Assembly: GCF_003334355.1 (NCBI RefSeq) | Contig: NZ_QOWP01000005.1 | From: Escherichia coli | Lineage (GTDB): Bacteria; Pseudomonadota; Gammaproteobacteria; Enterobacterales; Enterobacteriaceae | DNA: 64,000 nucleotides | Strand: one strand, 5' to 3' | Shown here: piece after piece, positions 3,969 to 9,366 of the stretch | How the letters are laid out: each line of letters starts with the position of its first letter | How positions within the stretch are numbered: the first letter of the stretch is position 1 | The notes under the pieces: generated by a model | The model's input: only the letters and a program-made list of their open reading frames with translations | What the model was told of the DNA's origin: nothing | The model's database searches: none | Program-made: the position numbers and the translations under genes

Positions 3969-3983
3969 CGCCTTTACTCCCTG

Positions 3984-4184
<201 letters not shown>

Positions 4185-6208: not shown

Positions 6209-7612
6209 TTAAACAATGCGAAACGCATCGACTAATACACAGCGACGCAGACGGACAAACGTACGCGCGCTGGTTACCCCTTCACCGGTTGGCGTGGTGA
6301 TGGTCATGGTGGTCCAGCCTTCCCCGCCCAGCCCCAGCCCGGCAATGCACGGTCCGTTCTTAACGAAAATGCTGGTATCAATAGCATTCGCCATCTGGTT
6401 CATGTTTTCGATGTTGCGCGAGTGCATTGCCGCCGTGTGGTGGCAACCGCCTTCCAGTTTCACCGCCAGCGCAATGGCATCCGCCACGTTGGCGACGCGC
6501 ACGACGGGCAGCACCGGCATCATCAGTTCGGTCACGGCAAACGGATGTTCTGCAGTGGTTTCCACAAACAGCAAACGCGTTTCTTGCGGCACGTTCAGGC
6601 CGATTGCCGCCGCGATTTTCGCCGCATCGCGACCAACCCAGTCACGGCTGACGGTGCCTTTTCCGCGCTCGTCGATATTTTTCAGCAACACCGGTTGCAG
6701 CTGCTGCGCCTGTTCTGCGGTCAGTTTCACCGCGTGCTGGCCTTCCATCAGACGCATCAGTTCATCGGCTACGCTATCAACAACAATCAGTACCTTTTCG
6801 TCGGCACAAATGATGTTGTTATCGAAAGAAGCGCCTTTGACGATGGACTGAGCGGCACGGGCGAGGTCGGCGGTTTCATCCACCACTACCGGCGGGTTGC
6901 CAGCGCCTGCGGCAATCAGACGTTTATTGGTGTGTTTACGCGCCGCTTCTACTACCGCTTCGCCGCCGGTCACCACCAGAAGGCCGATGCCCGGAAACTT
7001 GAACAAACGCTGCGCGGTTTCGATATCCGGATTTGCCACAGTAACCAGTAAGTTTTCCGGCCCGCCTGCGGCAACAATCGCCTGGTTGAGCAGCGTGATC
7101 GCCCGCTGGGAGACTTTTTTCGCCGCCGGATGCGGGGCAAAAATGACGCTGTTGCCCGCGGCAATCAGGCTGATGGCGTTATTAATTACGGTTGCCGCCG
7201 GGTTAGTGGACGGAGTTACCGAAGCCACCACGCCCCAGGGCGCGTTTTCAATTAAAGTCAGGCCGTTGTCGCCGGTCAGCACCTGCGGAGAGAGACACTC
7301 AACGCCTGGCGTGCCGCGCGCCTGAGCGACGTTTTTGGCAAATTTATCTTCAACGCGGCCCATGCCGGTTTCACTGACGGCAAGTTCCGCTAAATCTCTG
7401 GCGTGTTTTTCGCCTGCCTCACGAATGGCAGCAATGGCTAACTGGCGCATTGCCACGCTTTTTAACCCTTGCTGGGCGACTTTGGCTGCCGCAACGGCGT
7501 CATCCAGGGACGCGAAAACGCCCATCTCATGAACGGCGGCGGGCGGCATGTCACTGCTTTGCATTTTCAGCAGTACCGCTTTCACCACCTGTTCAATATC
7601 CTGTTGATTCAT
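6209..7612 (-). CDS. eutE: CoA-acylating acetaldehyde dehydrogenase EutE
   Basis: 467-aa ORF; aldehyde dehydrogenase family; recognised as EutE. Confidence 0.93.
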   Translation of the reverse strand: MNQQDIEQVVKAVLLKMQSSDMPPAAVHEMGVFASLDDAVAAAKVAQQGLKSVAMRQLAIAAIREAGEKHARDLAELAVSETGMGRVEDKFAKNVAQARGTPGVECLSPQVLTGDNGLTLIENAPWGVVASVTPSTNPAATVINNAISLIAAGNSVIFAPHPAAKKVSQRAITLLNQAIVAAGGPENLLVTVANPDIETAQRLFKFPGIGLLVVTGGEAVVEAARKHTNKRLIAAGAGNPPVVVDETADLARAAQSIVKGASFDNNIICADEKVLIVVDSVADELMRLMEGQHAVKLTAEQAQQLQPVLLKNIDERGKGTVSRDWVGRDAAKIAAAIGLNVPQETRLLFVETTAEHPFAVTELMMPVLPVVRVANVADAIALAVKLEGGCHHTAAMHSRNIENMNQMANAIDTSIFVKNGPCIAGLGLGGEGWTTMTITTPTGEGVTSARTFVRLRRCVLVDAFRIV

Positions 7613-7623
7613 GATGTTCTGCC

Positions 7624-7911
7624 TTATTTGTGGAAAATTACCTGACCGCCAGACACCACCTCATCGACAATGCCAATCACGCACAGATCGACCGGTGACG
7701 TTTCGCTTTTATGCGCCTGGCGGGCGGAACTGCCACTCACCAGTAACACCCACTCCCCGGTCCCCGCGCCAATATTGTCGATGGCGACGGCGCATTGCCC
7801 GTCAGGATTACCTTGTGAATCAATCATTTCCACCATCAGCAATTTGTCATGCGCCAGTCCGTGATGGCGTACGGTACAAACAATTTGTCCAGTGACGACT
7901 GCCAGTTTCAT
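7624..7911 (-). CDS. eutN: microcompartment vertex protein EutN (EutN/CcmL family)
   Basis: 95-aa ORF MKLAVVTGQIVCTVRHHG; recognised as EutN. Confidence 0.93.
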   Translation of the reverse strand: MKLAVVTGQIVCTVRHHGLAHDKLLMVEMIDSQGNPDGQCAVAIDNIGAGTGEWVLLVSGSSARQAHKSETSPVDLCVIGIVDEVVSGGQVIFHK

Positions 7912-8017
7912 ACCCGCCTCCGTGGCGTATTTCAGGTAAAAGCTCCCCCTACCCTCCGCAGAAGGTAAAATGAAAAAGGAGAGAGCGTGACGCCCGAATC
8001 GACGTCACACAGGGTGA

Positions 8018-8311
8018 TTACAGGTTGCTGCTATCGCCTTTCAGGCCGATCGGGAAGACTTCTTCCAGGTCGCCGTGCGGACGCGGGATAACGTGTACAG
8101 ATACCAGCTCGCCGATACGCTGTGCCGCTGCGGCACCTGCATCGATCGCGGCTTTACAGGCTGCAACATCACCACGAACCATGGCAGTACACAGGCCGCC
8201 GCCAATCTGCTTAACACCAACCAGCTTGACGCGCGCAGCTTTCACCATCGCGTCAGAAGCCTCAATCAGTGCAACCAGGCCCCGGGTTTCGATCATTCCT
8301 AATGCTTCCAT
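8018..8311 (-). CDS. eutM: microcompartment shell protein EutM (BMC-H domain)
   Basis: ORF track 8018..8353 trimmed to [18 protein letters not shown] (97 aa); canonical BMC shell protein. Confidence 0.93.
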
Positions 8312-8349
8312 TGTGCTTTCCTCTTTATCAGGGTCCAGAACGGGACCGT

Positions 8350-9366
8350 TCATTCAACCAGTGTTTGTAAACTGCTTTCGCGGTTCACTTCTGTCTGACG
8401 CGGCACAGCTGCCACCAGCGCCAGCTCGATAATTTCCTGCACGCTACAACCACGAGAGAGATCGTGCATCGGCGCGGCAAGTCCTTGTATCAGTGGCCCG
8501 ACGGCACGATATCCGCCGAGTCGTTGTGCGATTTTGTAACCAATATTTCCGGCTTCCAGCGACGGAAAAACCATCACATTGGCCTTGCCCTGTAGCGGGC
8601 TGGCAGGCGCTTTTTGCGCCGCCACTTCCGGCACGAAGGCGGCGTCAAACTGTAACTCGCCATCCACCACCAGCTTTGGTGCGCGCTCACGGACGATTTC
8701 TGTCGCCTGCTGGACGTTAGCAACACAGGGGTGACGGGCGCTACCATTGCTGGAAAACGACAGCATCGCCACGCGCGGCTCTTCTCCGGTGATGGCGCGC
8801 CAGGTTTCGGCACTGGCAAGCGCGATATCCGCCAGCTGCGCCGCCGTCGGCTGTGGCACCACGCTGCAATCGGCAAAGCCCAACGCCGGGCCGCTGTACT
8901 GTGGCAACATCAGGAAAATGGAAGAGAGCGTTTTACAGCCTGGCTGCAAGCCGATAATGCGTAATCCGGCACGCAGCACATTTGCCGTGGAAGAGAGGTT
9001 GCCCGCGATACAGACATCCGCTTTACCGGCGCTGACCATTGCTGCGGCGAACATCAGAGGGTCGGTAAGTTTTTCCAGCGCATCCGGCGGCGTTTTTTCG
9101 CCCGCGCGGGCCAGCCAGCGATGAGCAAATTCTTCCCGCATTGCGAGGTTGCCATGCGGATCAATCACCTGTAGCCCGTCCATCGCCACGCCGTGACTGA
9201 GCGCAAACTGACGAAGTTCAAACGGATTGGCGACCAGAATGGGCGTTGCCAGACCTTGTTGATGTAAATATTGCGCGGCTTTCAGCACACGTTGGTCTAA
9301 CGCATCCGGAAAAACCACTCTGGCGGGCGCTCGCAACGCCAGTTCACGACAACGTTCAATAATCAT
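8350..9366 (-). CDS. eutD: phosphotransacetylase EutD
   Basis: 338-aa ORF; Pta-like sequence; overlaps eutM region by 4 nt in the track. Confidence 0.93.

Follow-up and report, generated by a model that had tools for sequence, protein, structure and literature searches.

A conserved RNA hairpin on the sense strand of the eutM–eutN spacer in the Escherichia coli eut operon

The closely packed eut operon of Escherichia coli raises the question of what a 106-nt gap is doing between eutM, which encodes the major hexameric shell protein, and eutN, which encodes the pentameric vertex protein. An earlier note on this DNA drew attention to the gap and suggested that a hairpin within it could act as a partial terminator or mRNA-stability element that sets the EutM:EutN ratio. 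Here we analyse the spacer in its 64,000-nt stretch of E. coli DNA (the window), compare it with the same junction in other proteobacteria and set it against public RNA and protein levels.

A structured spacer between eutM and eutN

The region 7600–8360 of the window has a match in 5409 of 5426 complete E. coli genomes (best hit, 99.7% identity), and the RefSeq annotation of the matching DNA gives the order pta(eutD)–eutM–eutN–eutE, with the operon on the minus strand. According to this annotation and the list of open reading frames, eutM occupies 8018–8311 and ends in a UAA stop codon (8020–8018), and eutN occupies 7624–7911, both on the minus strand; eutE begins on the same transcript after a further 11 nt. 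The spacer between the two cistrons fills exactly 7912–8017, as had been claimed, and the observation that most eut genes abut or overlap is also correct: the gaps in this 17-gene operon are overlaps or at most 38 nt, except for eutM–eutN and eutG–eutH (216 nt). The eutM–eutN spacer occurs at a single place per genome in 5408 of the 5426 complete genomes (blastn, 11-nt words, E up to 10) and carries no annotated feature. A sigma-70 promoter scan found none in the spacer, the sole promoter-like match being inside eutN.

As sense-strand RNA, the whole spacer folds with −43 kcal/mol (z = −3.2); the 38-nt eutD–eutM spacer (8312–8349), used as a negative control, has no significant structure (z = 0.0). 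The order of elements along the mRNA is hairpin 1, a pyrimidine tract with hairpin 2, an AU-rich linker, a small hairpin at the Shine–Dalgarno sequence and the eutN AUG. The spacer is thus predicted to be a structured RNA module of the eut mRNA, in which a very stable hairpin 1 is backed by a second hairpin.

Hairpin 1 (GUGUGACGUC, loop GAUUCG, GGCGUCACGC) lies at 7985–8010 on the minus strand (read 8010–7985), and its first pair is 8 nt past the eutM stop codon. The stem has 10 pairs, including six G–C and two G–U pairs, and closes a loop of 6 nt (ΔG = −17.4 kcal/mol, z = −4.68; 0 of 200 shuffles equally stable). On the opposite strand it is much weaker (−8.4 kcal/mol, z = −2.0), because the two G–U pairs, present in the sense orientation only, become A–C mismatches. 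The inverted repeat GTGACG-N10-CGTCAC that was first noticed here is real, although it lies at 7987–8008, one base away from the approximate 7986–8007 originally given, and on the mRNA strand its 6 bp are part of the longer stem of 10 bp. Across the 64 kb, the pattern GTGACGYC-N3-30-GRCGTCAC has a single occurrence, compared with 0.01 expected.

A purine-rich stretch reported alongside the repeat is likewise present on the plus strand; on the mRNA it is the pyrimidine tract CUCUCUCCUUUUUCAUUUUACCUUCU, which forms the 5′ arm of hairpin 2. In the minimum-energy fold, the tract and the bipartite hairpin 2 together span 7943–7983 on the minus strand, with an outer stem (CUCUCCU/AGGGGGAG), a 9-nt U-rich internal loop and an apical stem (UACCUUC-UGCG-GAGGGUA). 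The linker that follows, CUUUUACCUGAAAUAC (7927–7942, minus strand), is AU-rich and unpaired in the fold, and contains a box that stands out by its sequence conservation, UACCUGAA (7938–7931). Next to the eutN start, a 4-bp hairpin (CGCC-ACGGA-GGCG; 7915–7927, minus strand), found in the folds and in the RNAalifold consensus, holds part of the eutN Shine–Dalgarno sequence GGAGG (7921–7917) in its loop. A long-range ACCC/GGGU helix that encloses the spacer in the E. coli minimum-energy fold was rejected; it is missing from the RNAalifold consensus and is not consistently formed in Citrobacter spacers.

Several other identities for the element were considered and set aside. An element of the antisense strand was rejected on the weak fold of that strand and the lack of a T-run after the hairpin there. 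Inspection disposed of a small open reading frame of 19 codons (GUG at 8008), because loop-length changes of 4–20 nt shift the frame between species. Reading of the sequence gave no slippery site for stop-codon read-through or frameshifting, and the resulting extension would not be conserved. A DNA palindrome for a dimeric regulator was also rejected: a dimeric DNA-binding protein across both arms is excluded because the spacing of the arms varies from 4 to 20 nt. A cmscan search of 7400–8600 against Rfam (E up to 10) returned nothing relevant, its one match being a chance microRNA hit inside eutM.

Conservation across proteobacteria

Searching for EutN in one genome per species yielded 48 loci, 42 of which have eutM directly upstream and, together with the window, provide 43 junctions. 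All 43 proteobacterial junctions examined have a spacer, of 52–211 nt. Hairpin 1 is found in 25 of them, including the window, and in six genera (Escherichia, the C. freundii group and relatives, K. spallanzanii, Buttiauxella, Entomohabitans and Yokenella). REP/BIME elements are found in 14 (Salmonella, K. pneumoniae, the K. oxytoca group, C. koseri/amalonaticus/sedlakii, Pseudocitrobacter and Pluralibacter), and other GC-rich hairpins in four (Intestinirhabdus, Pseudomonas and two Rhodocyclales). Whole-spacer z-scores are negative for 39 of 40 distinct spacers, with individually weak values in many Citrobacter (−0.65 to −1.7). This one junction carries three or more unrelated structured solutions, which indicates that structure at this position is selected. 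We regard the presence of unrelated structured elements at one junction across enterobacteria, in effect a natural experiment, as the most useful result of this work.

In its carriers, hairpin 1 starts 5–9 nt past the stop codon and has 9–11 bp, a stability of −12 to −18 kcal/mol and a loop of 4–20 nt. One internal pair is C–G in 9 sequences, U–G in 7 and U–A in 5, the basal pairs covary (U–G, G–C and C–G) and the core of the Yokenella hairpin carries a compensatory G–C to A–U swap. In the alignment, 90% of the cells are paired, compared with 43–58% when the partners are slid, and 11 pairs have changed on both sides, compared with 2 in the slid controls; the covariation score was reached by 0 of 500 shuffles. 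RNAalifold independently recovers hairpin 1, the apical part of hairpin 2 and the small Shine–Dalgarno hairpin. The apical stem of hairpin 2 also covaries (ACCUUC/GAGGGU, GUUCUC/GAGAGC and GCCCUC/GAGGGC); the Shine–Dalgarno hairpin, which pairs consensus columns 122–125 with 131–134, has changed on one side only.

The sequence of hairpin 1 is conserved as well as its shape. The 16 core stem bases are 81–100% identical to those of E. coli (13–16 of 16), compared with 38–70% at four-fold degenerate sites of eutM and eutN, and all 21 aligned sequences, from five genera, share an unchanged GUGACG/CGUCAC core; Yokenella alone is altered, by its compensatory swap. Hairpin 2 and the remaining spacer are beyond alignment in Buttiauxella, Entomohabitans and Yokenella. 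All hairpin-type spacers except that of Yokenella retain the UACCUGAA box: it precedes the eutN AUG by a fixed 18–19 nt in Escherichia, Citrobacter, K. spallanzanii, Buttiauxella (as AUCUGAA in one) and Entomohabitans, and is missing from REP-type spacers. Conservation in six genera, compensatory changes, G–U pairs that form only in the sense RNA and arms conserved above silent sites together support the conclusion that hairpin 1 is a selected feature of the sense-strand RNA.

Contigs of 269–466 bp in assemblies assigned to Gemelliphila palaticanis, Prolixibacteraceae JC049 and Caballeronia mineralivorans encode EutN proteins 87–100% identical to that of E. coli. These contigs are very likely to be enterobacterial contamination of the three assemblies.

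Variation within E. coli

In 4398 E. coli genomes, the spacer shows 99% identity or more. In four sampled variants, the changes fall in loops, in hairpin 2 or in the first bases of the spacer, and never in hairpin 1. The spacer of strain 90-1 (NZ_CP050047.1) contains an IS911 immediately after hairpin 2, at the 5′ edge of the UACCUGAA box (locus positions 1501–2858, equivalent to about 7940 in the window), with a 3-bp CTT duplication. This insertion probably has a polar effect on eutN and the eut genes beyond it.

RNA and protein levels

Two public RNA-seq tables, both of gene-level counts with column meanings that had to be deduced and some values based on very few reads, give eutM as the most abundant mRNA segment of the operon. 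For EDL933, normalised counts per nucleotide are 1.09 for eutQ, 0.98 for eutT, 1.17 for eutD, 3.70 for eutM, 2.58 for eutN, 0.65 for eutE, 0.41 for eutJ and 0.28 for eutG. For LF82, counts per kb with bile salts (induced) are 103 for eutT, 351 for eutD, 528 for eutM, 216 for eutN and 106 for eutE; those without bile salts (uninduced) are 16, 106, 164, 17 and 10, respectively. A UPEC supplement gives fold changes only and was not used for RNA levels.

At the gene level, the step in RNA abundance at the eutM–eutN junction is modest under induction: 1.4-fold in EDL933 and 2.4-fold in induced LF82. It reaches about 10-fold in uninduced LF82, where the counts are very low. In EDL933, the larger drop falls after eutN and not at the hairpin.

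Protein levels show a far steeper contrast. E. coli proteomics gives values of 100 for EutQ, 96 for EutM, 39 for EutL, 37 for EutB, 27 for EutE, 24 for EutC, 11 for EutS, 10 for EutD and 1 for EutN (PMC11334477). EutE is thus 27 times as abundant as EutN on the same RNA, and therefore no RNA-level element upstream of eutN singles out EutN; a gene-specific translational effect on eutN must exist. The low level of EutN is probably translational, reflecting weak translation of eutN, and the EutM:EutN ratio of about 100:1 must arise mainly in this way. The spacer element contributes at most a few-fold to the level of EutM relative to the downstream proteins, and cannot alone explain an approximately 100-fold excess of EutM over EutN.

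The tempting idea that the hairpin sets the shell-to-vertex ratio is thereby corrected: the ratio is probably set by eutN translation. What survives of the idea is a selected sense-strand structure directly after the gene with the most abundant RNA; what speaks against it, besides the EutE and EutN levels and the modest RNA step, is the pdu operon of Salmonella, which has no such spacer. There, pduA and pduB overlap, and the pduJ–pduK and pduM–pduN gaps are 3 nt each. A general rule by which a hairpin follows the major shell gene is rejected by this operon, and since pduA, pduJ and pduN have no spacer around them, a structured spacer is not a general feature of microcompartment operons. PduN is presumably scarce too.

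A 473-kb replicon of Salmonella serovar India labelled 'plasmid unnamed1' (NZ_CP022016.1) carries the chromosomal cbi–pocR–pduF–pdu region, in which all pdu genes are tightly packed and no gap exceeds 20 nt. The record probably represents a piece of the chromosome or a mis-assigned replicon.

A proposed barrier to exonucleases

The reading that best accommodates these observations, to which we assign a probability of roughly 0.45, is that the spacer hairpins act as a 3′ exonuclease barrier and stabilise the eutS–eutM mRNA. Both this mechanism and the source of the 3′ ends are our inference. The distal eut transcript would be cut by RNase E, or would stop short within eutN, which is poorly translated, or past it; 3′-to-5′ trimming by PNPase and RNase II would then halt at the spacer hairpins, leaving a long-lived eutS…eutM mRNA. 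As trimming would be halted there, the eutM message is proposed to outlive the other parts of the operon. In Salmonella, most Klebsiella and several Citrobacter, REP/BIME elements would do an equivalent job at the same site, and weak termination may add to the barrier.

The spacer has features of a stabilising hairpin, namely a stable sense-strand stem-loop 3′ of the more highly expressed cistron and conservation of its structure. REP-containing transcripts are stabilised (PMC10100675). Counting against a barrier are the position of the main RNA drop in EDL933, after eutN, the weak z-scores in Citrobacter and the shell stoichiometry that the pdu operon attains with no such spacer. If the barrier model is right, the spacer element is one determinant of the output of major shell protein from the 17-gene operon. 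A determinant of this kind would matter for the colonisation of the gut by E. coli and for those who re-use eut genes to make synthetic compartments.

Alternative explanations

The main rival to an exonuclease barrier is a leaky intrinsic (Rho-independent) terminator, in which hairpin 1 and the pyrimidine- or U-rich tail after it would stop some polymerases and so lower transcription of eutN and the genes downstream. The nascent RNA does contain a G+C-rich stem-loop, and a lenient terminator scan matches hairpin 1 (10 pairs, 6 G–C, loop of 6) with the tail TCTCTCCTTT. The U-tracts differ between species. Buttiauxella has a good one directly after the stem (UUUCUUUAA or CUUCUUUUA), whereas the E. 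coli tail, UCUCUCCUUUUU, opens with UCUCUCC and has 4 U in its first 8 nt; no U-tract follows the structure in Yokenella or in the REP-type and Pseudomonas spacers inspected. With no U-tract in common, structure and not intrinsic termination is the common denominator of the junctions. The fall in RNA of about 10-fold in uninduced LF82 would suit a terminator; the step under induction does not, and neither does the abundance of EutE, EutB and EutC, all encoded downstream, relative to EutM. The gene for the operon activator, eutR, is transcribed mainly from the eutS promoter (PMC10433801), and strong termination within the operon would therefore be self-defeating. Leaky termination as the principal function is accordingly an unlikely account, although it and a barrier role are not mutually exclusive. 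The original proposal of a partial terminator or stability element keeps its footing in the lenient scan match, the replacement by REP/BIME elements and the abundance of eutM RNA, and loses ground on the poor U-tract of E. coli.

More doubtful is the view that the spacer serves to control eutN translation, by insulating eutN from the ribosome traffic on eutM while the Shine–Dalgarno hairpin and eutN codons 12–19 keep initiation low. The levels of EutN and EutE on one mRNA demand some such control. In support, among the 12 eut start regions tested, that of eutN has the lowest predicted accessibility (mean unpaired probability from −14 to +3 of 0.10, compared with 0.23–0.53 for the other eut genes; opening energy, 14.7 kcal/mol), and the small Shine–Dalgarno hairpin is part of the RNAalifold consensus. 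However, the predicted partners of the start region are codons 12–19 (start region and codons together, 7855–7927) and this small hairpin, so that sequestration would draw on eutN's own codons and the final 20 nt of the spacer and not on hairpins 1 and 2. The predicted pairing also depends on the folding window, no compensatory changes for the pairing of the start with codons 12–19 were found in 32 enterobacterial sequences, and pduN, with its presumably scarce product, follows pduM after 3 nt with no spacer. Sequestration of the eutN start by codons 12–19 may occur, as the folding model suggests. In a speculative variant, CsrA would bind at two CGGAGG motifs. The protein binds the eutS leader in Salmonella, a known CsrA site of the eut operon (PMC10433801); at the eutM–eutN spacer, the ACGGA in the loop of the Shine–Dalgarno hairpin and the GCGGA at the apex of hairpin 2 resemble CsrA sites at the level of the motif.

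We think it quite improbable that the structure is instead a brake on eutM itself. By this account, a stable structure no more than about 15 nt from the stop codon would stall the terminating ribosome, leading to mRNA cleavage and tmRNA tagging, and would limit the synthesis of a protein that aggregates on overproduction. Liang, Rudd and Deutscher (2015) reportedly described such stalling, cleavage and tagging at stop-proximal REP elements. The geometry is as required in the hairpin-type spacers, where structure begins 5–9 nt past the stop, and in most REP-type spacers, where it begins within about 13 nt or less, but K. pneumoniae and C. koseri have their first strong structure about 26–27 nt past the stop. 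Moreover, EutM and EutQ are the top two Eut proteins by abundance, and eutM RNA is the most abundant of the operon, the reverse of down-regulation.

Still less credence attaches to a sequence-specific site, in which a dedicated protein or a small RNA would recognise the GUGACG/CGUCAC stem and perhaps the UACCUGAA box. The core stays invariant while hairpin 2 and the remaining spacer diverge in Buttiauxella, Entomohabitans and Yokenella, and the box keeps its distance from the eutN AUG; going by sequence, the invariant core and the placed box show more conservation than a generic barrier needs, a hint of specific recognition. On the other side, no candidate factor is known, Salmonella and Klebsiella carry unrelated REPs instead with the same eut genes, the G–C to A–U swap in Yokenella fits a constraint on structure rather than on sequence, and loop variability excludes a dimeric DNA-binding protein over both arms. 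An extension of this idea, for which we would offer longer odds again, makes the hairpin 1 core and the box, instead of a generic nuclease barrier, a dedicated recognition element for a trans-acting factor that would link the assembly of microcompartments to how strongly eutN and the distal genes are expressed; the factor could be a small RNA or a nucleic-acid-binding Eut shell protein, for example EutK through its helix-turn-helix tail.

Least credible of all is that the spacer has no function and is a tolerated gap, such as a relic of operon fusion, that folds by chance and passively collects REPs and insertion sequences: REPs and IS911 have landed in it and whole-spacer z-scores are unremarkable in several species, but hairpin 1 is conserved far above silent sites, shows compensatory changes and is invariant in the sampled E. 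coli variants, and the spacer is retained at 43 of 43 junctions.

Relation to known systems

No description of the eutM–eutN spacer element was found in the searchable literature. In mechanism, its kind is well known: a stem-loop between cistrons that stabilises or attenuates. In the gal operon of E. coli, an 8-bp hairpin at the 3′ end of galE blocks exonucleolytic trimming and sets polarity; the trimmed 3′ ends come from Rho termination or RNase E cleavage, and the next gene is poorly initiated (PMC11925234). The eut case is alike in having a short hairpin (10 bp) in a polycistronic mRNA, a poorly expressed next gene and RNA levels in the order eutM > eutN > eutE. The gal hairpin lies inside the next coding sequence, unlike the eut hairpin, which lies in a dedicated spacer 8 nt past the stop codon.

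Leaky terminators or stabilising hairpins also follow the major-subunit genes papA (pap pili) and pufBA, upstream of pufLMX (Rhodobacter). These operons share with eut the arrangement of a major-subunit gene, a stem-loop and genes for minor subunits, with stoichiometry achieved by differential RNA abundance. In eut, by contrast, eutE, eutB and eutC beyond the minor subunit are again highly expressed, and therefore the hairpin element cannot be the main stoichiometry device; the U-tract of E. coli is also poor.

RNA hairpins within eut operons are familiar from Firmicutes, in which terminators are controlled by the ANTAR protein EutV (PMC3369931). The eutM–eutN element was rejected as an ANTAR target, given its loop length of 4 to 20 nt and the Rfam search (E up to 10) that gave no match. 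The hairpins of such targets come in pairs, have hexaloops in which certain bases are conserved, and overlap with a terminator. Enterobacterial eut operons are not known to have the EutVW regulators.

The closest parallel is with REP/BIME elements. Between cistrons these reportedly stabilise mRNA (Newbury, Higgins and colleagues, 1987–88, for malE–malF and hisJ–hisQ), and REP elements are said to protect the mRNA upstream of them (Newbury et al., 1987). Like them, hairpin 1 is a sense-strand stem-loop directly after a cistron that is needed in the larger amount, and its site is the one taken by REP/BIME elements in the eut operons of Salmonella, Klebsiella and C. koseri/amalonaticus. The E. 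coli spacer is itself not a REP or other dispersed repeat, a possibility that we rejected: it is single-copy in 5408 genomes, and none of the 13 matches to the REP core consensus (GCCGGATGCGRCG-like) in the window falls within 7912–8017.

The real REPs of the E. coli operon lie between eutG and eutH, which has 4 of these matches. This spacer (3969–4184, between minus-strand genes) holds a BIME-like array that begins 2 nt past the eutG stop codon and consists of two tandem 88-nt units (100-nt period, 97% identical) with two REP motifs each, at 4000, 4070, 4100 and 4170. In the LF82 table, eutH has the higher count per kb of the two flanking genes (419, compared with 142 for eutG).
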